A DNA stretch of 64,000 bases from Candidatus Multivoradales bacterium (GCA_965223325.1 CBDCWI010000001.1:1984001-2048000); one strand, 5' to 3'; shown: positions 9,870 to 54,661, numbered from the stretch's first letter. Numbers and translations are program-made. The notes: a model not told the origin generated them from the sequence alone.

Positions 9870-10035
9870 CTAGTACCCCGTACCCTTGAAACGGATAGTG
9901 GCTGAGCGGATGATCGTGCTCGAGATCAAGGCGTCACGACGCAGGCATATTGGTGATCTGTCGAGGAGTGACAACACAGAGATCGAGCGCGAGGACCGCG
10001 CAGACGCTGTGAGTTTCAATGGTACGGGGTACTAG
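9870..10035. mobile_element. 166-bp non-autonomous MITE-like element bounded by CTAG
   Basis: CTAGTACCCCGTACCCTTGAAAC (9870-9892) and GTTTCAATGGTACGGGGTACTAG (10013-10035) are 23-nt inverted repeats with 1 mismatch. No credible ORF inside. Lies between convergent genes. Confidence 0.75.
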
Positions 10036-17204: not shown

Positions 17205-17480
17205 ATGTGCAGGAACATCCGGACGCTTCACAATTTCGCCCCTCCGGCGACCCCCGAAGAGGTGCGCTCGGCCGCTCTCCAGTACGTTCGCAAGATCAGC
17301 GGCTACCGAAAGCCGTCGATCGCCAACAGCGCCGCCTTCGAAGCCGCCATTCAAGAGGTCACCCAGGCCACCGAGCGCCTGCTTGCTGGCCTGACGGCCA
17401 CGACCCCGCCCAAGAACCGCGAAGAGGAAATCGAGAAGGCGCGGGCACGGTTTCGCAGGCGTCAACAGGCCGGGCGCTGA
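17205..17480 (+). CDS. DUF2277 family protein
   Basis: MCRNIRTLHNFAPPATPEEV..AALQYVRKISG. AAGGAGG SD. Confidence 0.9.
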   Translation: MCRNIRTLHNFAPPATPEEVRSAALQYVRKISGYRKPSIANSAAFEAAIQEVTQATERLLAGLTATTPPKNREEEIEKARARFRRRQQAGR

Positions 17481-17500: not shown

Positions 17501-20500
17501 ATGAAACGCCTCCTGGTCGCCAACCGTGGCGAAATCGCGATCCGCATTCTGCGCTCCGCGCGCGAACGAGGGCTCGAGACCTGCACGGTCTACACCTCGG
17601 ACGAGGGCCACGCGGCTCACGTCGACTTCGCCAACGAAGCGATCGAACTCACACAGGCGGGACCGCAAGGCTTCCTCGACATCGAGCAGCTGATCGAGGT
17701 GGCGCGCACGACGGACTGCGATGCTCTTCACCCAGGGTACGGGTTTGCGAGTGAAGACCCAGAGCTGGCAGAGGCCTGTCGGAAGGCGGGAATCGTGTTC
17801 GTGGGCCCCTCCCCGCAAACCCTGGAACAGCTCGGGGACAAACTCGCGGCGCGCACCATCGCTGACCGCCTCGAGATTCCACCCATCCCGGGCGCTCCCA
17901 CCCGAAGCGCCAAAGAGGCCGAGGCGTTCCTGGCCGAGCTACCGGCGGGGAGTGCCGTCGTGATCAAGGCGGTCGCCGGCGGCGGTGGACGAGGAATGAG
18001 GCGGGTCGAAGACCCTCGAACGGTCGAGACCACCTGGGAACGATGCCGCTCCGAGAGCACGTCGGCTTTTGGCCGCGGCGACGTCTACGTCGAGCGCTAT
18101 CTCGAAGGCATGCGCCACATTGAGGTGCAGATCGCGGGCGACCTTCGAGAAGCTGTTTCTCTGGGGACTCGCGATTGCAGCGTGCAACGACGTCACCAGA
18201 AAGTTCTCGAGATCGCTCCCGCGCTCGGCCTGGCGCCGGATCTCGTGGCACGCCTCGAGCACTGGGCCTGTGAGCTGGCCTCTGAGCTCGGCTATCAGAA
18301 CCTCGGCACAGTCGAGTTTCTCGTCGATGGCAGCCGGAACCCAGGAGACGAAGCCTTCTTTCTCGAGGTCAATCCGCGCCTGCAAGTCGAACACACGGTC
18401 ACCGAAGAGGCGACCGGTCTCGACCTGGTCGGTCTGCAGCTGGCGCTCGCTGATGGACAGTCTCTCGAACAGTGCGGCCTTCGTCCTGGCTCGTCGCCAC
18501 CAGTGATCGCCACCGCCCTCCAACTGCGCATCAACGCCGAACGCTACGAACAGAGCGGCGAGGTACGACCGACCGGTGGTCGAATCGACGGGCTGCGTTT
18601 TCCCACCGGACCAGGCATTCGCATTGACACCTACGCAAGACAAGGGGTGTCGACCAGCCCGGCCTTTGACTCGCTGCTCGCGAAACTCGTGGTCTCGCTA
18701 GAGGGCGATGGCCGCGTCGACCCTGAGGTGTGGTCCCGGCTTCTCGAACGAGCACGCGGCGCGCTCGAAGAGACCGAGATCGAAGGCCTGCTGACCAACC
18801 TGCCTGTGCTCGCCAGCATCCTTCGAGAGGCCGACGTGGCAACGCTTCGGTTTCACACCCGCTGGCTCGAAGAGCGCCTGCCGGATCTCCCCCTTGGAAG
18901 CGAGCCGATCGGCCATGCGATCAGGAACCCAGGCAGCGCTGGAGCGGCGGTCGACCCGCGCGATCCACTCGCGGTGTTGGCCTTCGGCAAAGGTGCCATA
19001 GCAGGCGCTCTGCCCGCGACCTCGACGAGGTCCGCGCCCTCCTCGAACGCCGAGGCCGGACCCGACATCGTTCCGGCACCATTGCAGGGAACCATCGTTT
19101 CTCTCGAGGTCGGCCTCGAGGACTCCGTACAAGAGGGTCAGGCAATCCTGGTGCTCGAGTCGATGAAGATGGAACATCTGGTTGCGGCACCCCACGCGGG
19201 GATTGTGCGCGAGTTCCTGGTCGCACCAGGCGACACCATCTACGAAGGACACCCCCTGGCTCGGGTCGAGCCCGCAGACGTTGTGGACACTCTCTCCACT
19301 GCTGACGACGGAGGAGAGGACCCGGGGTTCATTCGTCCCGACCTCGCTGACGCCCTCGCACGCCAGGCCAAGCGCCTCGACGCCGAGCGACCAGAGGCGG
19401 TGGCGCGGCGTCGTAAGACAGGCCAACGCACGGCGCGCGAGAACGTCGAGGATCTGTGCGATCCCGACAGCTTCTTCGAGTACGGCTCCCTGGTGATCGC
19501 CGCCCGTCGCCGGCGGCAGCCCCTTCAGGAACTGATCGACCGCACCCCGGCCGACGGTCTGATCACCGGAGTCGGCACAGTCAACGGCAACCTCTTCGGT
19601 AACGAGAAGGCACGGTGTGCGGTGCTCTCCTACGACTACACAGTGCTTGCCGGTACCCAGGGCAAGAAGAACCACGACAAGAAGGACCGTCTCTTCGAGC
19701 TCGCCGAACGCGAGAGGTTGCCGGTCGTCTTCTTCACCGAGGGCGGCGGCGGGCGCCCAGGAGACACCGACGTCATCGGAGTCGCAGGTCTCGACTGCAT
19801 GGCGTTTCACATCTTTGGCCGATTGAGCGGCCTGGTGCCACTGGTCGGCATCAACTCGGGCCGCTGTTTCGCTGGCAACGCGGCACTACTCGGCTGTTGC
19901 GACGTTGTCATCGCCACTTTGAACTCGAACATCGGCATGGGGGGGCCGGCGATGATCGAAGGTGGCGGGCTGGGTGTCTTTCGCCCCGAAGACATCGGCC
20001 CGATCGACGTCCAGGCCGACAACGGCGTGGTGGACATCGTCGCGCGTGACGAGGCGGAAGCGGTCGCTTTCGCCAAGCAGTACCTGTCGTACTTCCAGGG
20101 ATCGGTCTCGGAGTGGACTGCCCGCGACCAGCGCCTGCTACGGCACGTCATTCCGGAGAACCGTTTGCGCATCTACGAGGTGCGCCGCGTCGTCGAGGGG
20201 CTGGCAGACGAAGGCTCGGTTCTCGAGCTGCGTCAGCGCTTCGGGAAGGGCATGGTCACCGCACTCGCGCGTATCGAAAGCCGACCGATAGGAATCGTCG
20301 CCAACGACCCGGCCCACCTCGCCGGCGCGATCACCTCCGACGGCGCGGACAAGGCGGCTCGTTTTCTCCAACTCTGCGACGCGCACGACCTGCCGGTGCT
20401 GTTTCTGTGTGACACCCCCGGCATCATGGTGGGTCCAGAGGCAGAAAAGACAGCGCTCGTTCGTCACGCGGCGCGCATGTTCGTTGTCGGTGCGAGCATC

Positions 20501-20887
20501 ACCGTGCCCTTCTTTACCGTCGTCTTGCGCAAGAGCTACGGCCTCGGTGCACAGGCGATGGGAGGAGGCAGTTTCAAAGCACCCTTCTTCACCGTTTCCT
20601 GGCCCACCGGTGAGTTCGGCGGCATGGGCCTCGAGGGAGCGGTCAAGCTCGGCTTTCGCAAAGAGCTCGAGGCCATCGAAGACCCCGAAGAACGTCGGGT
20701 CGCCTACGAGCGCATGGTCGCCGAGGCCTACGAACGCGGCTCTGCGATCAACACCGCCAGTCACTTTGAGATCGACGACGTGATCGACCCCGCCGAGACG
20801 CGCTCGCTTCTGGCTCGTGCTCTGCGCGCGACCCCGCCGCCCGCGCCACGCGCCGGTAAGAAGCGCCCTGCCGTCGACACCTGGTGA
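17501..20887 (+). CDS. Single-chain multidomain biotin-dependent acyl-CoA carboxylase (BC-BCCP-CT)
   Basis: LLVANRGEIA, HPGYGF, GGGGRGMR, QRRHQK, EVNPRLQVEH; ESMKM biotin site; YDYTVLAGTQG, DTPGIMVG carboxyltransferase motifs. Confidence 0.95.
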   Translation: MKRLLVANRGEIAIRILRSARERGLETCTVYTSDEGHAAHVDFANEAIELTQAGPQGFLDIEQLIEVARTTDCDALHPGYGFASEDPELAEACRKAGIVFVGPSPQTLEQLGDKLAARTIADRLEIPPIPGAPTRSAKEAEAFLAELPAGSAVVIKAVAGGGGRGMRRVEDPRTVETTWERCRSESTSAFGRGDVYVERYLEGMRHIEVQIAGDLREAVSLGTRDCSVQRRHQKVLEIAPALGLAPDLVARLEHWACELASELGYQNLGTVEFLVDGSRNPGDEAFFLEVNPRLQVEHTVTEEATGLDLVGLQLALADGQSLEQCGLRPGSSPPVIATALQLRINAERYEQSGEVRPTGGRIDGLRFPTGPGIRIDTYARQGVSTSPAFDSLLAKLVVSLEGDGRVDPEVWSRLLERARGALEETEIEGLLTNLPVLASILREADVATLRFHTRWLEERLPDLPLGSEPIGHAIRNPGSAGAAVDPRDPLAVLAFGKGAIAGALPATSTRSAPSSNAEAGPDIVPAPLQGTIVSLEVGLEDSVQEGQAILVLESMKMEHLVAAPHAGIVREFLVAPGDTIYEGHPLARVEPADVVDTLSTADDGGEDPGFIRPDLADALARQAKRLDAERPEAVARRRKTGQRTARENVEDLCDPDSFFEYGSLVIAARRRRQPLQELIDRTPADGLITGVGTVNGNLFGNEKARCAVLSYDYTVLAGTQGKKNHDKKDRLFELAERERLPVVFFTEGGGGRPGDTDVIGVAGLDCMAFHIFGRLSGLVPLVGINSGRCFAGNAALLGCCDVVIATLNSNIGMGGPAMIEGGGLGVFRPEDIGPIDVQADNGVVDIVARDEAEAVAFAKQYLSYFQGSVSEWTARDQRLLRHVIPENRLRIYEVRRVVEGLADEGSVLELRQRFGKGMVTALARIESRPIGIVANDPAHLAGAITSDGADKAARFLQLCDAHDLPVLFLCDTPGIMVGPEAEKTALVRHAARMFVVGASITVPFFTVVLRKSYGLGAQAMGGGSFKAPFFTVSWPTGEFGGMGLEGAVKLGFRKELEAIEDPEERRVAYERMVAEAYERGSAINTASHFEIDDVIDPAETRSLLARALRATPPPAPRAGKKRPAVDTW

Positions 20888-22140
20888 CCGAACCCGAGTC
20901 AGCACCGGTGACCACACCGGAACTGCGTGGCGAGTCGCGCAACCCTTTTCGGGCACCTGACTTCTTGTCCTGGTGGCTCGCATCGATCGTTGCTGGCACC
21001 GGCATTGGTATTCAGGCCGTAACGGTACCGATCTTCATTCGTGACCGTGTCGATCTCGAAACGCGGGCGTTGGCGATTGCGGGCGCACTGGTCGCGCAGA
21101 CCCTGCCCGGGGCTTTCCTGGCTTTGGTCGGCGGCGCGGTCGCCGATCGAGTGGAACGGCGGCGGATTCTGGTGCGCACCTTCTCGGCCGCAGCGTTGGT
21201 GTCCGTTGGCTATGTGGTGTTGTCGGGCCTCGAGCTGCCCTTTGTATGGCCGGTGTTTGTTCTCGCCGTGATCGTGGGCGCGGCCGGTGCGTTCACCAAT
21301 CCTGCTCGCCACAGCATGCTGCCGCAGGTGGTCAGCAAAGCGCAGCTGCAGAACGGAATCATTCTCGGGACGATGGGCTACATGGCGACTCTGCAGTTCC
21401 TGGGACCAGCGGCCGGCGGGTTGATCACCGATGGTGCCGGGCTCACCTGGGCCTTCACCGTCGAGGTCGTGCTACTTCTCGCCGCTGCAATCCTCTTTGG
21501 CCGCATCCAGACCGATACACCAACGCCCAGCGGCCGCAACGTCCTGGGTGACCTGGTCGACGGCCTCGACTACGTCCGCCGACAACCGGCTCTCGCGGGC
21601 CTCCTGGCTCTCGGAGCGATTCCTGGCATCTTCTTCATCGGGCCGTTCGCGGTCACCGTTCCGATCATCGTGCCCGACGTTTTCGAGGCCAGCGACAAGT
21701 GGGTCGGGCTTCTGTGGGGCGCCTTCGGCGGCGGTGTGTTCATCGGCTCGACCCTCTTGTCGATCCGCCCCATGCCACGCCGTGGTCTCGCGGTGTGCCT
21801 CTCGACGATAGGCGGCGGCATCATGCTGTCGATCTATTCCTTCACTCAGACCCTGCCGATGGCCCTCTTCGTACTCACGCTCTGGGGATTGAACGCCGCT
21901 GTGTTCATCAACTTCGTCGTCGCCCTTCTCCAGGAAAACACGAAAGATCGCATGATGGGACGCGTGATGAGTATGTACTCACTGGTGTTCTTCATCTCGA
22001 TGCCCATCGGCTACGGACTCGCCGGTGTGCTCACCACGCGCTTTGGAATCCAGACGACCCTGCTGGCCAGCGGATGTGCGGCTGGGGTCTGTGGCCTGAT
22101 CGCGGTCACCACATTGCGTACTGTTCGAGCCCTGCGCTAG
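20884..22140 (+). CDS. MFS transporter (DHA3/EntS-like)
   Basis: GGAVADRVERRRIL, AFTNPAR.SMLP, MMGRVMS, 12 TM segments. GTGA overlap with the carboxylase stop. Confidence 0.92.
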   Translation: MTEPESAPVTTPELRGESRNPFRAPDFLSWWLASIVAGTGIGIQAVTVPIFIRDRVDLETRALAIAGALVAQTLPGAFLALVGGAVADRVERRRILVRTFSAAALVSVGYVVLSGLELPFVWPVFVLAVIVGAAGAFTNPARHSMLPQVVSKAQLQNGIILGTMGYMATLQFLGPAAGGLITDGAGLTWAFTVEVVLLLAAAILFGRIQTDTPTPSGRNVLGDLVDGLDYVRRQPALAGLLALGAIPGIFFIGPFAVTVPIIVPDVFEASDKWVGLLWGAFGGGVFIGSTLLSIRPMPRRGLAVCLSTIGGGIMLSIYSFTQTLPMALFVLTLWGLNAAVFINFVVALLQENTKDRMMGRVMSMYSLVFFISMPIGYGLAGVLTTRFGIQTTLLASGCAAGVCGLIAVTTLRTVRALR

Positions 22141-22168
22141 ATTCGAACGACCCTTCCTGGAGCCGAGA

Positions 22169-22498
22169 ATGAAAGTCGACTGGTACTACCACCGCAACGG
22201 TTGAACAGGTTGCGAGAGAGCGGCCAAGTTCATGGCTGCACGCAACATTGAGATCACTGAGCAGGTTCCGGCGAGCAGAAAACTGGGCGAGAAAGAAGCG
22301 CGCGAACTCATCAAAGGCGCTCGAGCGATCCTGGTCTCGAAAGGCCGCAAGCAGGAGAGCTGGAAAGGCGGGCGTGCCACGAGAGACGTCGTTGCCGCCT
22401 TCCTCGGTTCAACCGGCAACCTGCGCGCTCCAACCGTGAAGTCTGGCAGCACGGTCCTCGTTGGCTGGAACGAAGACGTCTGGAAAAAAGTCTTCTAG
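22169..22498 (+). CDS. ArsC-family (seleno)protein, 109 aa, Sec at residue 12 (UxxC)
   Basis: GGAG SD then ATG 22169. Reads MKVDWYYHRNG-TGA(22202-22204)-TGCERAAKF, in frame with the ORF-track 22232..22498 ORF, which contains LGSTGNLRAPT...VLVGWN. SECIS-like hairpin downstream of the TGA. Confidence 0.85.
22209..22246 (+). promoter_or_regulatory. Putative bacterial SECIS element
   Basis: GTTGCG/CGCAAC lower stem, GCGGCCA/TGGCTGC upper stem, loop AGTTCA. 22 nt separate the UGA from the loop, and G is at loop position 2. Confidence 0.7.
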
Positions 22499-22529
22499 CG
22501 AGGGGCGTGGTTGTCTCCGCTTTCTCCTG

Positions 22530-23105
22530 CTAGGAGCGTGCCTCTGGGTTGAGGTGATCTCGGGCGTTCATACCACGCCCCTCGCTAGAGTCACATCTGC
22601 GGCGCAAGCGCTCAGGCGAGCGACCCTCGGTCCACCGCGCTCGCCCTGCACACGCAACCACGGACTGCCAAGGCAGGGCGCGCGCCGCGGATTCCGGGCT
22701 TCGATGGAGCTTCGTCCTGAAGCGTGCTCCTCCTTCTAGGAGCGTGCCTCTGGGTTGAGGTGATCTCGGGCGTTCATACCACGCCCCTCGCTAGAGTCAC
22801 ATCTGCGGCGCAAGCGCTCAGGCGAGCGACCCTCGGTCCACCGCGCTCGCCCTGCACACGCAACCACGGACTGCCAAGGCAGGGCGCGCGCCGCGGATTC
22901 CGGGCTTCGATGGAGCTTCGTCCTGAAGCGTGTTCCTCCTGCTAGGAGCGTGCCTCTGGGTTGAGGTGATCTCGGGCGTTCATACCACGCCCCTCGCTAG
23001 AGTCACATCTGCGGCGCAAGCGCTCAGGCGAGCGACCCTCGGTCCACCGCGCTCGCCCTGCACACGCAACCACGGACTGCCAAGGCAGGGCGCGCGCCGC
23101 GGATT
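22530..23105. repeat. Tandem array of a 206-bp non-coding unit (2 full copies + 164-bp partial)
   Basis: Units start with CTAGGAGCGTGCC at 22530, 22736 and 22942. Copies 1 and 2 differ at 2 positions near their ends. A 17-bp perfect inverted repeat links 22495-22511 with 22572-22588. Confidence 0.95.
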
Positions 23106-38089: not shown

Positions 38090-38431
38090 TCAGGTCAGCT
38101 CGAGGAGGTCTTCGACCGGTCTCCCGAGGACGGCCCGGTCGTCGAGAACGGCGATCGGCCGTTGCAGGAGAGTCGGGTGCTGAGCCATGGCGGCGATGAT
38201 CTCGCTTTCCGGCTCGTCGCCGGTCAGCCCGAGGCCGCGATTGGCCGCATCGCGCTTTCGAAGAACCGCCGCAGCAGGGCTGCCGAGCTTGCCGAGGACC
38301 GATTCGATCTCGGCCTCGGAGAGCGGCTCATCGCGGTACTCGCGGTACCGGTAGCTGGCGCCCGCGTCGTCGAGCAAGGCGACCGCCTTGCGACAGGTGC
38401 TTCAAGTGCGGGTACAGATGAGCTCGATCAT
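38090..38431 (-). CDS. ArsC/Spx/MgsR-family selenoprotein, 113 aa, Sec at residue 10
   Basis: GGAGG SD. ATG 38431 overlaps the kinase TGA. Reads MIELICTRT-TGA(38404-38402)-STCRKAVALLDDAG...HPTLLQRPI..GRP. SECIS-like hairpin follows the TGA. Confidence 0.88.
38369..38394 (-). promoter_or_regulatory. Putative bacterial SECIS element
   Basis: GTC-GCAAGGC-[GGTC]-GCCTTGC-TC-GAC. 17 nt separate the UGA from the loop, and the loop starts with G. Confidence 0.72.
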
Positions 38432-48680: not shown

Positions 48681-49820
48681 ATGAGTGAAGAAGTTCGGCC
48701 GCACGAAATCCGTGTCAGCGAGGCCGCGATCGCCGACCTTCGTCGTCGTCTCGAGGCAACACGCTGGCCCGAGAAGGAGACCGTCGACGATTGGACACAG
48801 GGCACACCGCTCGCCTACCTGCAGGAAGTCTGCACCTACTGGGCGAACGGGTACGACATGCAGCGACTGGCGAAACGCTTTGCGCCGTACGAGTCCTTCG
48901 TGACCGAGATCGACGGCATCGACGTGCAGTTCTTCCACATCCGTTCGAACACCGATGGCGCCCGCCCGCTCGTCATCACCCACGGTTGGCCGGGTTCACA
49001 GGTCGAGTTCTTGAACGTCGTCGAACCGCTGATTGATCCGGTCGAGCACGGCGGTACCGACATTGACGCCTTCCATCTCGTTCTACCGTCGATGGTGGGC
49101 TACGGCTGGTCCGGCAAACCGACGACCAACGGGTGGTCGGTCGAGAAGATGGGCGATGCCTGGGCCATCTTGATGAAACGCCTGGGCTACACCGACTACT
49201 TCGCCCAGGGCGGAGACTGGGGCTCCGTGGTCACAACCGCGATCGGCATTCAGGACCCTGAGAACTGCGCCGGCATACACCTCAACATGGCACCCGTTCG
49301 CCCCGACCCCAGCACCATGGACAGCCTTACCGAGGCCGAGAAGAGTGCGCTGGCTGGTCTCCAGTACTACCAGGAGCACGATTCTGGCTATTCGAAGCAG
49401 CAGAGCACCAGACCACAGAGTGTTGGCTACGGCCTGGTCGACTCCCCGGCGGGCCTGGCTGGGTGGATCCTCGAGAAGTTCTGGGCGTGGACCGACTGCA
49501 ACGGCCATCCCGAAAACGTGCTCACCCGCGACGAGATGCTCGACAACCTGATGGTGTATTGGCTCAACGCTACCGGCGCGTCTTCCGCCCGCCTCTACTG
49601 GGAAAGCTTCGGTGGTGATCTGGCGGCCAAGGTGGAAACCCCGACCGGCGTCAGCGTGTTTCCGAAAGAGATCTTCAGAGCGTCACGGCGATGGCTCGAG
49701 CAGCGCTATACCAACTTGCACTACTTCAACGCGCTCGACTCGGGAGGCCACTTCGCAGCGATGGAGAAACCAGACGTGTTCATTGACGAGGTGCGTGCCG
49801 CTTTTCGCGGGCTCCGGTGA
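48681..49820 (+). CDS. Epoxide hydrolase (microsomal-type, EHN domain)
   Basis: DLRRRLEATRWP, HGWPGS, QGGDWGS, DSPAGL.GWI.EK, GGHFAAME. Confidence 0.95.
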   Translation: MSEEVRPHEIRVSEAAIADLRRRLEATRWPEKETVDDWTQGTPLAYLQEVCTYWANGYDMQRLAKRFAPYESFVTEIDGIDVQFFHIRSNTDGARPLVITHGWPGSQVEFLNVVEPLIDPVEHGGTDIDAFHLVLPSMVGYGWSGKPTTNGWSVEKMGDAWAILMKRLGYTDYFAQGGDWGSVVTTAIGIQDPENCAGIHLNMAPVRPDPSTMDSLTEAEKSALAGLQYYQEHDSGYSKQQSTRPQSVGYGLVDSPAGLAGWILEKFWAWTDCNGHPENVLTRDEMLDNLMVYWLNATGASSARLYWESFGGDLAAKVETPTGVSVFPKEIFRASRRWLEQRYTNLHYFNALDSGGHFAAMEKPDVFIDEVRAAFRGLR

Positions 49821-49890
49821 GTCATCCTGCGGGCTCCAACACTCACCAGCAGGACGCCCTTGGTGCTTCAAAACAGAGGAGGAGATCTCA

Positions 49891-50973
49891 ATGGAGATTC
49901 GGGAGAGACACCATTCAGCCATCGCAGTGGTCGCAACGGCCTTTCTACTGAACCTTCCCGCCGCATCGGCTCAGCAGCCGGTGACGGCCGGCGCTCTTCC
50001 TGCGCAGCCGGCCGCAGACCTTCGTAGCCCGCTCCCGAAACCCGAGGCCCCGATCATCGTCACGTTCCAGGGCACGGCCAGCGGAATGCTGGACGGGGCA
50101 GCCTTCTCCCCGACTGAGTTCGTCATCACCGCCACTGGCCGGTTGTCGTCGCGCTCGCAGCAGGAGCTCTCCTGGCTCATGGCGAACGACTCGGCGAGTG
50201 TGACTCTCGGAGGCATCGGCTCCTATGACTTCGTCACGCCCTCTGAGATCTGGATCACCGGTGGGGCGACCGGATTCCGACCGGCAGGTGCTTTTGACAG
50301 GACCAACTTCTCGGGAGCGGGGATTTCCGAGTGGCACGGAACGACTCCGATCGGGCCGCTGACGGGCGAGATCATGAATACACAGTGGGGGAACACGAGC
50401 TTCGAGACGACGGGAGGAACACTCTTCTTGGACGCGGCGCTCGGAAGCGGCACGTTCGAAGCGCGAATTCCGCAAGCGATTGTCTACTTCTACTCCGGCG
50501 AGGCATCCGGTGTGCTCGACGGCTCGCCGTTTTCGACCACACCGATCTTGATCACCGCGACGAGCGTCGCTCCGGAACGCCTCTATGAACCCGGTCTCTG
50601 GACCAGCGAGAACTCCGCTACGCTCGTCGAGCTCGACGGGCTTGGCGTGTTCGAGATCATCGACGGGACGTCGAGCTTCGTGAACAACACCGTCCAACTT
50701 GGGGGCATTTCCACCGCAGGAGGTCTCGATCTCCTCGGCGGACCGACGAACGCGGCCCTCGAGTCCTGGTATATGACCTCCTCGATAGGCCCGCTCACCG
50801 GCGGCGGAGGCTACATTCAAACCGTCGGCGTCAACACCACCGGTGGCTCGCTCCAACTGGACGCGGCGGACGGCCTCGCGAACCTCCTATTCTCGGCCGT
50901 GATCCCCGATGTCCTCTTCGCGGACGAGTTCGAGACCGAGAACCTGAGCGCCTGGTCGACCTCAAAACCCTGA
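49891..50973 (+). CDS. Secreted protein with two tandem ~140-aa beta domains and conserved C-terminal tail
   Basis: Signal peptide; repeat 'G.ASG.LDG..FS.T...ITAT...IGPLTG...TTGG.L.LD' x2; ends DVLFADEFETENLSAWSTSKP. GAGGAGG SD. Confidence 0.8.
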   Translation: MEIRERHHSAIAVVATAFLLNLPAASAQQPVTAGALPAQPAADLRSPLPKPEAPIIVTFQGTASGMLDGAAFSPTEFVITATGRLSSRSQQELSWLMANDSASVTLGGIGSYDFVTPSEIWITGGATGFRPAGAFDRTNFSGAGISEWHGTTPIGPLTGEIMNTQWGNTSFETTGGTLFLDAALGSGTFEARIPQAIVYFYSGEASGVLDGSPFSTTPILITATSVAPERLYEPGLWTSENSATLVELDGLGVFEIIDGTSSFVNNTVQLGGISTAGGLDLLGGPTNAALESWYMTSSIGPLTGGGGYIQTVGVNTTGGSLQLDAADGLANLLFSAVIPDVLFADEFETENLSAWSTSKP

Positions 50974-51108
50974 ACGCCCAACCGCGACCCGGGTGAGGAC
51001 CCCGGGTAACGTACCGAAGAGGGCCGAGGCAGCGGCGCGAAGACGCCTCGAACCCCACCAACAAGGCTCAACTCAAGAACCCGAGTCGCGGGGCTCGAGC
51101 CGTCTCAA

Positions 51109-53125
51109 TCAGCCACCGTCCTCGCGGGTCGCCTCAATAGCGGCACTGTCCTCGAAGTTATTGTCGATACTGCCGGGATCACCCGACTGCGCCTCACCGA
51201 ACCATACGAAAGGCGTACTGCCGGCATCCCCTCGGAAGACCACCCTGGCGAGCAAGATCTCTGAGGGCGCGGCACCGCCGCTGAATGGCAAGCTGATACG
51301 CGCAATGCCTTCGAAGACGCCATCGACGAAAGCGGTCAGCGGAATGCTGACCGTGATCCACTCGCTTGGCTGACCTTCGATGTAGTCGCCGAGGGCGACC
51401 GCCCCGGAGGTATCTCCAGAGGGAGCGATCAGCAGTTGATCCCAGTCGGCGTTACCCGAGACGTCGCGCAGCGTGAGCTCAAGGCGCGTTGCGCCGCCCG
51501 CCGTCGGATCGATGTTCGGCCCCCACAGGTTGGTCGGGTTGTGGCCGAGTTTGAAGTGCCCCCAGCCGCCGTGCACCCGCAACCGGAAGTACTGTCCTAG
51601 TACAGGCCCGCCACCACTGTCGCTCCACGCGGTATACGTCACCGAGGTGAAGTTGTACGTCGCAACGTCGTCGCCGTTGCCCGCGCCAACCCTGACGAAC
51701 ACGGTCGAGCCGTCGGTTGGAAGACCCGTGACGTGAGCAGTCGTCGTCGAGGTGAACCCGGAGAACAGATCACTGCCGCCGAGCGACGACCCGACCTCGA
51801 CACGGTAGCGCGGCCCGGTCGCCGTCCAGCTGAGCGTCATGGCATCGCCGTCGAGCACACTTCCCGGCACCGGTCCGGTGATCTCGGGCGCCGGGAAGCC
51901 CCCGCCGGTCCAAGCTGTGTACTGGTAGTCGCGCACGACCCAGTCGCTGGCCGTCAACTGCGTGCGTAGCCGCACCCAGAGCTGGCGCCCGTCCACCGGC
52001 AGTCCGGTCACGTGCAGACTGGTCTGACCCGCTGGCACTGTGGCCGGCAGAAAGACGTCGATCGCACCCTGCGAAGACCCGATCGAGAGCTCGACCTGGA
52101 GTCCGTCATGTGCCGTCCAGACGAAGGTCGCAGCGTCCGAACCAAGCTCCGAGCCCGGCGCCGGCTGCACCAGTTCGGCAGGCTGGCCACCGGTCCCCCC
52201 CTTCCGTCATCAGCCCGGCGAGCAGCTCGCCGGGGCCGCCGCCGGCAATGAAGGCATTGTCGGTCTTTTCGGGCGCTCCGAACCAGACGAACGGCGCACC
52301 CGAGCCGAGGGTGAACTCGAAGCGCTCGAGATCGAGCACGAAGGGCGCGGCGTCGGCGCTCCGGAGGCTCCAGTGGGTGACGTTGTTCCACGCCCCGCTC
52401 GGGAACGCCGACAGCGGGATCTCGACCGAGAACCAGCCCACGGGGTCCGAGCCGATCCAATCGCCCAGCCGCACACCACCACTCGGGTCCGAGCTCGGCA
52501 GGATCTCGAGCTTCGAATACTCGGGGGCCACCTCCGAAGCGTTACGCCTGCCGCGTAGCTGCAGGACGAGGCTCGACTGGCCGGCGGCCGGGCTGACCTG
52601 GGGGGCCCAGATGTGCTCGTTGCCGTATCCCAACTTGAAGTGGCGCCACCCGGACATCGGGTTCTCGATGCGGAAGAAGACCACGTCTCCCACGGCGCCG
52701 CCGGCCGCGGTATAGGCGTACTGCCGCGTTTCGGAACCGACGTCAAAACGGGTCTCGAGCGAGACCAGGAGGGCCTGTCCGTCTTCGGGCAGACCGAGAA
52801 CCGTCACGCCATTCGTGCCGACCGGCAAAGTCTGCTGGAAGTAGGTGACGGTGGGCGGCGAGTCGCTGACACGCAGGGTGTAGCTGGTCGCACCGAGACC
52901 GTCGTTCCAGGCGAAGTCGACCGGACCACTGATCAGCTTGCTACCCGGGGACGGCGTCGTGATCTCGGCGGCGACGTTTTGCGCCACCGAAGTGGCCGTG
53001 TAGGTGGTCGCCCACGACAGCGTCTCGTCCGAGAAATCGCTGAACAGCGTGACGTGCAGGGTCGAGCCGTCGCTGGGCAGGTTGGTCACCTGTTTCTCGG
53101 TCGCAACGTGGCCGCGTTCGATCAA
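51109..53125 (-). pseudogene. Repeat-rich extracellular protein, frameshifted at a G7 run and apparently 5'-degenerate
   Basis: ORFs 52106..53125 and 51109..52170 share the same modules (P.PGS.L...W..., GLP.DG; GW.HFKLG...PFVWFG). Removing one G from the C7 run at 52195-52201 fuses them (EGGTGGQPAELVQPAPGS). There is no signal peptide, and the ORF begins mid-module. Confidence 0.75.
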
Positions 53126-53562
53126 CCCGAGCGGCGAGACCCTCGGTGCCTCAACTCACCACGGCCGACCATCTCGAGAGGCCTTGCTGGAGGTGTCGTT
53201 GAAGAGGTCCCTCGGAGTCGTATCGATCGGCAGGTCGGCACTCTCCACGAATCCCACGGCTGATAGCCCGTAGCCCGGGAACAATTTTCGATCCTCGCCC
53301 TGATGGTTGGCGAGGGGCGCTACTCGGGATCCGGCTTGCGGCGCTGGAAGCGCTCTCTCGAGCGCCCTCGAATCTCGATTACTCGCTTGAAGAACAACGC
53401 CAGCAGGCCATGGCGCGCGTCACGAAGCTCTCGATTCAGGGAGTGCAACCCCAACTCAGCGCTCGCCTCTCACCCTGCTTCGGGAAGTTCGTTCTCGTTC
53501 GACAAGAGCAGCACCCTCATCCCCAAGCCGGCCCGGCTCAGGTCCCTGGTGGGGGCACGGGT

Positions 53563-53613
53563 ATTGGTTCTGGGACATTGGTGCCAATTGGATCTTGAGA
53601 GTCCTATTGGATC
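53563..53613. promoter_or_regulatory. Candidate operator: four ATTGG boxes including the palindrome ATTGG-TG-CCAAT
   Basis: ATTGG at 53563, 53577, 53587 and 53606, ATTGGATC repeated twice, directly upstream of ATG 53631. Confidence 0.4.
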
Positions 53614-53630
53614 CTGACACTCTCGGAAGC

Positions 53631-54032
53631 ATGCAAGGTACCCGTCGACTGCTGCTCGTACTGGTTGGCGCGCTGGGAGTGCTGGCGCTTCTTGTGGGCC
53701 TGTGGGCACTTTCGAGCTGGCAGCACTTTCATGCCTCGGTAGCTAGCCATACGGGGCCGGCCAACCACCACTACATCCGCGATGTCGGTGCCGCCTACAC
53801 GACGGCTGGCATGGCGCTTCTGGTGGCTGTTGCCCGCCCCCGCTGGCGCGCTCCTTTGGTGGGTTCGGCAGCGGTCTTTCTCTCACTTCATGCGGCCGTG
53901 CATGTCTACGAGACGGCGATCGGTGAGGCCACGATGGCGCACCTGGCCGTCGACACTCCAGGCGTACTCGTCCCGGCCCTGATCACAGCTGTCTTGTTCG
54001 TGATCTTCGCGCGCCAGGAGACCGCCAGCTGA
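53631..54032 (+). CDS. Small 4-TM membrane protein, His-rich
   Basis: GLWAL...F, NHHYIRDVGA, LHAAVH; four hydrophobic helices. Confidence 0.75.
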   Translation: MQGTRRLLLVLVGALGVLALLVGLWALSSWQHFHASVASHTGPANHHYIRDVGAAYTTAGMALLVAVARPRWRAPLVGSAAVFLSLHAAVHVYETAIGEATMAHLAVDTPGVLVPALITAVLFVIFARQETAS

Positions 54033-54079
54033 CGCCCTCTCCACAGAATCGTAAAACCAACGAACTAAGGACCTATCTC

Positions 54080-54661
54080 ATGCGCCTCGAGCCTCTTCCT
54101 GCTGCACCGTCGACTAGAACCCGCCTTCTCGAGTGGGTCGCCGAGCGCGCGCTGGGCAAGACGACAACACCGACCCGAGTGGTCTACAGGCGGCTGCCTC
54201 GCATGTGGAACGTGTCCCTGGCTTTCATGAAGCTCACTCGTTCGATGACGATTGGCGCCGAGCTTTCCTTCCTTCTCCAGGCGAGAGTGGCCAACCTTCG
54301 TCGCTGTTTCTTCTGCGAGGATATTGCGCGCGCTCAGGCCGCTGCCAAGCGCCTAGGTATGGAGCGCTTCAATGCCCTCGCGGCCTGGCAAGACAGCAGC
54401 CTGTTCACCGAAGCCGAGCGGGCGGCCCTCCAACTCGTTGACGAAGCCAGCGATCTCAGCGGCGTGCGCGACGCAACGTGGCAGAAGGCGGCCGAACACT
54501 GGAACGACCGTCAACTGCTCGAGATCACCAGCCTGGTGGCGATCGAGAGCTTCTACAATGCCATCAATCTGACCATCGAAATGCCTGCCGATGGTTTGGA
54601 GCAACTTGCCAGTCGCAACGCGAGAACTTCCCCGATCGAACGCTCGGCGGCCGCCAGCTGA
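54080..54661 (+). CDS. Carboxymuconolactone decarboxylase/AhpD-like protein with CxxC
   Basis: RVANLRRCFFC, W.DSSLFTEAERAAL, QLLEIT...FYN. AAGGA SD. Confidence 0.85.
   Translation: MRLEPLPAAPSTRTRLLEWVAERALGKTTTPTRVVYRRLPRMWNVSLAFMKLTRSMTIGAELSFLLQARVANLRRCFFCEDIARAQAAAKRLGMERFNALAAWQDSSLFTEAERAALQLVDEASDLSGVRDATWQKAAEHWNDRQLLEITSLVAIESFYNAINLTIEMPADGLEQLASRNARTSPIERSAAAS

Follow-up and report, generated by a model that had tools for sequence, protein, structure and literature searches.

A Probable Selenocysteine UGA Codon in an ArsC/Spx-Like Gene of the NF041106 Family from a Candidatus Multivoradales Bacterium

The question raised by the locus at positions 22169..22498 (+ strand) of the stretch analysed here (64,000 nucleotides of a Candidatus Multivoradales bacterium, GCA_965223325.1 CBDCWI010000001.1:1984001-2048000, hereafter the window) is whether an in-frame TGA near the start of a small gene ends translation or is read as selenocysteine (Sec). 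The initial annotation had favored the latter, describing a Shine-Dalgarno sequence and an ATG at 22169, followed by MKVDWYYHRNG-TGA-TGCERA in frame with an ORF of 88 aa, and all of this was found as described. A Shine-Dalgarno-like GGAG, read from the sequence at 22159-22162 (+), lies 6 nt ahead of the ATG start codon (22169-22171), and the full gene consists of 109 codons and a stop codon, TAG, also read from the sequence (22496-22498, +). The TGA, at 22202-22204 (+), is codon 12 and the putative Sec codon (U12), while the TGC at 22211-22213 (+) encodes Cys15, the second residue of a UxxC redox motif, and is invariant in 70/70 aligned sequences (see below). When TGA is translated as U, a 109-aa product is obtained that begins MKVDWYYHRNGUTGCERA and carries the motif U12-T-G-C15. 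In the frame of this gene, the table-11 ORF list contains only a truncated 88-aa ORF, 22232-22498 (+), which shares the frame of the full gene and lacks the redox motif. Taken as a whole, the results make it very probable that 22169-22498 encodes a 109-residue member of the NF041106 family of the ArsC/Spx superfamily, with the UGA at codon 12 read as Sec; what we infer is that selenium is actually inserted, which redox chemistry follows, and with which physiological partner.

The NCBIfam model NF041106 (ArsC_rel_Se_1, "ArsC family (seleno)protein") matched the ArsC-like product at 99.1 bits (E 1.9e-28), its curated cutoff being 85 bits. The alignment paired protein residues 3-104 with model positions 1-106 of 107, and the product has, in U12-T-G-C15, the UxxC of NF041106. 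Judged by this match, the gene at 22169-22498 is a further member of a known, curated family, and its biology is not new. Pfam assigned no family to the 109-aa protein (P0001); the sole match, DUF3173 at E 0.17, was dismissed as chance. Neither PF03960, in the Pfam search, nor TIGR00014, among the NCBIfam matches, was matched by the protein at E <= 1, and TIGR01617 (Spx/MgsR) scored 16.5 bits, below its cutoff of 75.05.

A scan of species genomes (one genome per species) returned at least 598 matching stretches, of which the best 80 loci were kept. The closest of these best 80 (of at least 598), L001, was 63% identical to the window protein. TGA was present at the aligned codon in 80/80 of the best loci (of at least 598), and therefore in 81/81 sequences when the window is included; the context of the UGA in the 80 best loci was G-U-T/M-S/G/T-C. 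The record titles of the best 80 named Acidobacteriota, Myxococcota, Deltaproteobacteria, and many Gammaproteobacteria/Pseudomonadales, as well as two Eisenbacteria, Krumholzibacteriota, Binatia, Opitutales, Limisphaerales, a Spirochaetales bin, and an Actinomycetota bin. An in-frame start codon was located 11-18 codons upstream of the TGA in 79 of the 80 best loci (ATG in 72, GTG in 6, and TTG in 1); 11 codons precede U in the window, versus 13 in 63 of these 79 loci. In L025 (Gammaproteobacteria; 9935-10030), no in-frame ATG, GTG, or TTG was found between the previous stop and the UGA, and an ATT, a possible start, is present at the usual start position.

Full-length translations of the window gene, of P0004 (a homologue from a protein collection, described below), and of 68 loci were aligned (n = 70). 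Twelve loci (L017, L018, L025, L046, L054, L059, L061, L062, L066, L067, L079, and L080) were excluded by hand from this alignment as duplicates, because of odd ends, or because of the size limit. Residues W5, Y7, R9, G11, U12, and C15 were invariant in the 70-sequence alignment, and so were the C-terminal block L-G-x-T-G-N-L-R-A-P and the basic residues R9, K38, and R86. The invariance of W5, Y7, R9, G11, U12, and C15 implies that the stretch of 11 codons ahead of the UGA is coding. Coding conservation is thus seen on both sides of the TGA, as is expected of a bacterial selenoprotein gene.

A two-part hairpin at 22209-22246, with the loop AGUUCA 22 nt past the UGA, had been proposed in the initial annotation, and folding reproduced it. 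The whole hairpin (22209..22246, + strand) consists of a lower stem, 22209-22214 paired with 22241-22246, and an upper stem-loop (22220..22239), which was defined by the fold and by an alignment of 81 sequences, is conserved, and is the candidate SECIS. The upper stem has 7 bp (22220-22226 with 22233-22239) and begins 15 nt past the UGA; the apical loop, AGUUCA, occupies 22227-22232, which gives a UGA-to-loop spacing of 22 nt. A 49-nt fold had an MFE of -18.7 kcal/mol (z = -3.57), and 0/200 shuffles were as stable; the fold of a 76-nt context was not unusual (z = -1.20, with 22/200 shuffles as good). According to a recent review, the bacterial SECIS consensus allows 3-9 nt in the loop and 4-16 bp in the stem, at a spacing of 16-37 nt from the UGA; it also calls for a G at loop position 1 or 2, with G/U after it, and for an MFE <= -7.5 kcal/mol (PMC13188914). 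The window hairpin falls within each of these limits, with a loop of 6 nt, a stem of 7 bp, G at loop position 2 followed by U, a spacing of 22 nt, and -18.7 kcal/mol. In a whole-window Rfam search, nothing reached the gathering score for the hairpin. A search of 22150-22320 at E <= 10 gave one match, to a miRNA (E 9.5), which was dismissed as chance.

For the SECIS alignment, the 60 nt from the UGA onward were taken from 81 sequences (the window and the best 80 of at least 598 loci), and no gaps were needed. In the upper stem (columns 19-25 with 32-38), 93.3% of cells were paired, as opposed to 27-39% when the partner strand was slid by 1-3 columns. Changes on both sides were found in 4 of the 7 upper-stem pairs (28 cells), and the covariation score was reached by 0/500 shuffles, a control that for related sequences does not amount to a probability. 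Pair 21-36, scored in the 79 distinct sequences, was GC in 31, CG in 14, GU in 5, UG in 3, AU in 2, UA in 1, and unpaired in 23. The base at column 21 occupies a synonymous third position in an Ala codon, and the one at column 36 sets Asp or Glu. Pair 22-35 was U-A in most sequences, where it encodes Ser and Asp, and G-C in the window and in L008, where it encodes Ala and Ala. The loop was A-G-U-U-y-n nearly throughout the 81 sequences. The lower stem was partly conserved, with 56.5% of cells paired across the relatives, and its pair 12-41 swaps between CG (29) and UA (20). Since the stem is written in the conserved codons A-S/A-K-F-L/M-D/E/A-A, its conservation is partly due to protein constraint. 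The earlier view of the product as a divergent ArsC-like UxxC selenoprotein is borne out by, among other results, the 99.1-bit match to NF041106, the TGA in 81/81 sequences together with the conserved N-terminal extension, and a hairpin that covaries. The 81-sequence alignment describes a clean, covarying, family-specific element, a 7-bp stem with an AGUU loop, and could serve in the search for further members of the family.

An AlphaFold2 model built on the 70-sequence alignment had a mean pLDDT of 95.4 and a pTM of 0.86. Its elements are a strand at residues 5-8, a helix at 13-24, a strand at 32-34, a helix at 41-50, strands at 53-58 and 61-66, a helix at 72-78, strands at 89-92 and 95-98, and a helix at 102-108. 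When the model was compared with the PDB using Foldseek, the top matches were Spx (6ghb, 1z3e, and 3gfk) and ArsC-family proteins (3gkx, 2m46, and 3rdw), with TM scores of 0.55-0.62, and glutaredoxins and NrdH ranked below them. For the family profile, the E-value was 5.8e-8 with 2m46 (annotated as "arsenate reductase, putative") and approximately 3e-6 with Spx. In the profile search, U12-x-x-C15 was aligned to the CxxC of Spx, with U12 on the first Cys, and N-L-R-A-P-T was aligned to (K)RP(L/I). In the model, an ArsC/Spx-type thioredoxin fold is seen, with U12 in the nucleophile position before helix 13-24; the 88-aa form would be devoid of strand 1 and of the redox motif. The predicted fold is ArsC/Spx-like, and the model describes a thioredoxin-fold protein of the ArsC/Spx superfamily. 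In the model, Sec12 is located just before helix 1 and Cys15 within its first turn, where the two residues of a classical CxxC redox pair would be expected. A selenol/thiol-disulfide oxidoreductase is therefore the most likely identity of the protein. Such an enzyme would alternate between a selenenylsulfide and the reduced selenolate/thiol state, to which a system of the thioredoxin or glutaredoxin type would presumably return it.

A more specific function, in which the protein would be a true ArsC, i.e., an arsenate reductase coupled to glutaredoxin, and Sec its nucleophile, is suggested by the placement of the protein in the ArsC/Spx superfamily by both profile and fold, by the source names of some matches ("arsenate reductase-like glutaredoxin family protein"), and by the invariance of R9, K38, and R86. 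An arginine triad surrounds the catalytic Cys of R773 ArsC; ArsC of the R773 type, however, works with a single Cys, not with a CxxC pair. In addition, neither PF03960 nor TIGR00014 was matched at E <= 1, no ars operon genes are present near the ArsC-like gene, and no conserved neighbors were found. We consider this function unlikely: on the profile and gene-context results, arsenate reduction by the window protein is possible but unsupported.

The gene neighborhood offered no further clue to function. The initial annotation had placed the gene at the end of a DUF2277-carboxylase-MFS run, and in the window the genes are indeed on the same strand and closely spaced. A DUF2277 gene (17205..17480, +; PF10041, E 5.8e-36) begins the run and lies directly upstream of a gene for a fused biotin carboxylase/BCCP/carboxyltransferase of approximately 1130 aa (17501..20887, +), recognized by its Pfam and NCBIfam domains, for which ATG 17501 is the probable start. 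The carboxylase gene is overlapped by 4 nt by an MFS transporter gene (20884..22140, +; PF05977 and PF07690), which ends 28 nt before the start codon of the ArsC-like gene. The ArsC-like gene could be co-transcribed with this run. The arrangement is, however, not conserved among the 80 loci. When 12 window neighbors were compared by tblastn with the 80 loci (the best of at least 598), DUF2277 was found near the ArsC-like gene in 0/80, the carboxylase in 1/80 only (L030, 60% identical, opposite strand), and the MFS gene in 1/80 only (L015, 27% identity, opposite strand). The ORFs flanking the gene in 79 loci, 669 in all, were also clustered (L025, which has no start codon, was omitted); the commonest neighbor cluster occurred in just 8/79 loci, and no operon-based function could be derived. 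By these comparisons, the adjacency to DUF2277, the carboxylase, and MFS appears to be local, not a conserved association. On the other side of the gene, 26 nt past its stop codon, a 206-bp tandem repeat (22524-23105; 2.8 copies, 99% matches) was observed. Each unit contains an inverted repeat of approximately 15 nt, one arm of which overlaps the stop codon region of the ArsC-like gene; the array might represent a repeat element or a series of terminators, or might have arisen as an artefact of assembly.

The relatives present in protein collections bear on the identity of residue 12. A collection of 5.8 billion proteins yielded 35 matches, one of which is the window's own 88-aa ORF. As many as 33 of the 35 matches are 79-93 aa long, cover just 71-81% of the query, and begin after the UGA. 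The only full-length match among the 35, P0004 (115 aa, 52% identical), has G-C-T-G-C opposite G-U-T-G-C of the window protein. When 1.84 billion cluster representatives were searched exhaustively, 267 relatives were recovered at E <= 1e-3; 45 of these had E <= 1e-10, and none had E <= 1e-30. Full-length homologues (n = 49: P0004 and 48 picked from 150 listed) were aligned at the Sec column, which was found to hold Cys in 39, Trp in 9, and Ser in 1; 8 more cluster representatives begin right after this column. Cys homologues, another mark of a bacterial selenoprotein gene, are thus at hand in P0004 and altogether in 39/49 full-length homologues. The check proposed at the outset, on whether homologues possess the N-terminal extension and a Cys at position 12, accordingly came out in favor of a selenoprotein, since the extension is conserved and the Cys is present in P0004 and in 39/49 full-length homologues. 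The nine Trp entries (P0038, P0045, P0061, P0066, P0071, P0078, P0081, P0086, and P0087) have Trp exactly at the Sec column. They would most simply be explained by TGA having been translated by gene callers under table 4; if so, such translation is a second type of mis-annotation in the NF041106-type family, beside truncation.

The same nine Trp entries, among 49 full-length homologues, are a reason to consider that the UGA might be read as some other amino acid, i.e., as Trp or Gly by reassignment, or as Cys by a mischarged tRNA-Sec, and the insertion of selenium at U12 is itself something that we infer. TGA, however, is the stop codon of 19 of the 37 Pfam-supported genes in the window, which indicates that the recoding is local and that there is no genome-wide reassignment; the Trp forms, as just discussed, are most simply table-4 translations; and the position is that of the catalytic Cys of the fold, followed by a hairpin that fits the SECIS model. 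Decoding as another amino acid therefore appears improbable. As for the Sec machinery, ARAGORN found 0 tRNAs in the window, hence no tRNA-Sec, and selA, selB, and selD were absent among the ORFs scanned in the 64-kb window (47 against Pfam and 13 against NCBIfam, partly overlapping). tRNA-Sec was also looked up beside the homologues by running ARAGORN on 60 of the 80 loci. A 97-nt "tRNA-Thr(agt)" reported just past the gene in L010 (10358-10454) was rejected as a false positive, as Rfam detected no tRNA there and the segment is a GC-rich repeat.

The view that the TGA is an ordinary stop, that the true gene is the 88-aa ORF starting from ATG 22232, and that the upstream 11 codons are an untranslated leader is even less probable. 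It has on its side the outcome of standard ORF calling, which gives the 88-aa form here and likewise for 33 relatives in the collections, and the fact that no Sec machinery was seen within the 64-kb window. Yet the 11-13 codons ahead of the TGA show conservation at the protein level, since none of the 70 sequences, which come from many phyla, departs from W5, Y7, R9, or G11; the fold modelled at a pLDDT of 95 would lose both its redox motif and its strand 1 in the 88-aa form; full-length Cys forms exist; and ATG 22232, the start codon of the 88-aa ORF, falls within the hairpin. What the ORF calls illustrate, instead, is the prediction made at the outset that standard callers truncate such genes: the entry in the protein collection for the window DNA, P0003 (88 aa; 100% identical, 81% query coverage), is the truncated call, and 33/35 of the relatives in the collection begin after the UGA. 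Least probable of all is a pseudogene in which a Cys codon (TGC or TGT) was mutated by chance to TGA in the window genome, for while one substitution suffices to turn TGC into TGA and the window represents one genome only, the TGA stands at the same codon in 80/80 of the best loci (of at least 598) from different phyla, the hairpin is co-conserved, and the downstream frame is intact and conserved, so that the initial judgment of a chance nonsense mutation as unlikely was well founded.

Another ArsC-family selenoprotein gene is present in the window at 38090..38431 (- strand), with a distance of 16 kb between the two UGA-bearing genes. Its 113-aa product begins MIELICTRTUSTC and contains U10-S-T-C13, the in-frame TGA being at 38402-38404 (-), at the Sec column U10. 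A hairpin of 7 bp with the loop GGUC (38374-38391, -) begins 10 nt past the UGA. The 38-kb protein matches Pfam ArsC (PF03960) at E 1.7e-13 and TIGR00014 at 80.5 bits, under the cutoff of 106. Among its aligned homologues, Cys is at the Sec column in 13/13 of the full-length ones, and 6/6 of the short ones begin after this column; the stored form of the gene (P0188) is an N-terminally truncated ORF without the catalytic motif. The C-terminal motifs had been taken to place the two window proteins in separate subfamilies, GNLRAPT being regarded as different from LQRPI. The separation is upheld, because the two proteins are not significantly similar in BLASTP (E 0.68) and only the 38-kb protein matches Pfam ArsC. 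The contrast between the motifs is not upheld: profiles align GNLRAPT with (K/Q)RP(I/L), and U12 with the first Cys of the Spx/ArsC CxxC, and a profile comparison of the two proteins was in register but weak (probability 10%, E 0.003); the two motifs are homologous rather than unrelated. A motif scan and an inspection of read-through ORFs in gaps of the gene map revealed no credible TGA-containing genes in the window beyond the two of the ArsC family; the other read-through candidates were rejected as wrong-frame translations rich in Arg, Ser, or Pro. With two such genes in the 64 kb covered, the "selenoprotein-rich genome" of the initial annotation is at most a possibility. Elsewhere in the window, a 193-aa ORF (54080-54661, +) gave a weak match to NF053654, "YciW-related (seleno)protein" (63 bits, cutoff 310); it contains no in-frame TGA and is presumably a Cys form or a distant AhpD/CMD-like relative. 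In the approximately 4 kb before it (49821-54079), the long ORFs 49612-50973 (+), 51109-52170 (-), and 52106-53125 (-) had no Pfam or NCBIfam match.

In bacteria, Sec is inserted when SelB-GTP, together with Sec-tRNA(Sec), binds the SECIS apical loop and delivers Sec at the UGA. If, as we propose, codon 12 is read as Sec, the hairpin with its AGUUCA loop 22 nt past the UGA and its 7-bp stem would act as an in-coding bacterial SECIS; SelB-GTP and Sec-tRNA(Sec) on the apical loop would deliver Sec at the UGA at 22202-22204, and the other TGA codons of the genome would remain stops. A more far-reaching proposal, to which we attach only limited credence, combines several of the above results. Because the Sec codon is present in 80/80 of the best loci (of at least 598), among them Acidobacteriota, Myxococcota, Gammaproteobacteria, Eisenbacteria, and Verrucomicrobiota-type lineages, the close subfamily might be obligately Se-dependent; its family-specific SECIS would be embedded in the codons of helix 1 (A-S-K-F-L-D-A), and a selenium-specific or unrecognised housekeeping substrate would be possible. 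RNA pairing would then dictate residues: at pair 21-36, whether Asp or Glu is used would follow the synonymous choice of Ala codon, and at pair 22-35 of the window, Ser and Asp would have given way jointly to Ala and Ala. If this proposal is true, the family would represent a stand-alone, context-free, nearly always Sec-containing redox protein distributed across aerobic soil and marine phyla, and the ArsC-like protein would be more than a generic, Cys-replaceable reductase.

The practical value of the analysis lies in annotation. The window gene and its 38-kb neighbor are both stored in truncated form, without the catalytic motif; correcting the truncated calls is predicted to restore a redox-active protein, and the NF041106-type family is widespread.

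Surveys dating back to 2005-2008 already catalogued ArsC-like selenoproteins, and for NF041106 a curated model exists. The Sargasso Sea survey reported an "arsenate reductase" selenoprotein with a UxxS motif, represented by 14 sequences (PMC1088965). "ArsC-like" and "distant ArsC homolog" selenoproteins appear in a bacterial survey of 2006 (PMC1794560), and the GOS survey of 2008 includes both "Arsenate reductase (ArsC) 1, UxxS" and "Arsenate reductase 2, cd03032, UxxC" (PMC2398784). Table 1 of a 2026 review gives NF041106 as "Arsenate reductase-like protein, UxxC" and credits it to the GOS survey (PMC13188914); going by this citation, the GOS row "Arsenate reductase 2, cd03032, UxxC" would be the NF041106 family. 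An arsenate reductase-like protein is also the worked example of BSepDB (PMC13326102).

Compared with the classical ArsC selenoproteins (UxxS of the Sargasso Sea, ArsC 1 of the GOS survey, and the 38-kb gene), the window protein belongs to the same superfamily; in all of them Sec takes the place of the catalytic Cys near the N-terminus, and the coding sequence that follows contains a SECIS hairpin. They differ in that the 38-kb protein matches Pfam ArsC and TIGR00014, whereas the 109-aa protein matches neither; in the SECIS loops, which are AGUUCA 22 nt past the UGA in the window gene and GGUC 17 nt past the UGA in the 38-kb gene; and, according to the model, in the insert between the halves of the thioredoxin fold, which in the window protein is predicted to hold a beta-hairpin (residues 53-66). 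The Spx/MgsR redox-sensing, RNA-polymerase-binding regulators (TIGR01617; 1z3e and 6ghb) resemble the model with TM scores of 0.56-0.59, and their CxxC aligns with UxxC. The window protein is, however, shorter, and with 16.5 bits it falls under the TIGR01617 cutoff, a score by which we judge that it is not an Spx. The window hairpin is similar to the E. coli fdhF-type SECIS in being located within the coding sequence, immediately 3' of the UGA, and in having a small apical loop with G followed by U; its sequence, a putative SelB site, is family-specific and matches no Rfam model. Finally, relative to other members of NF041106, the window protein has a shorter N-terminus, and its gene has G-C in place of U-A at one stem pair (Ala/Ala for Ser/Asp); in its UxxC motif, in its length of approximately 110 aa, and in the occurrence of both Sec and Cys forms, the window protein is like NF041106, and nothing defining differs.
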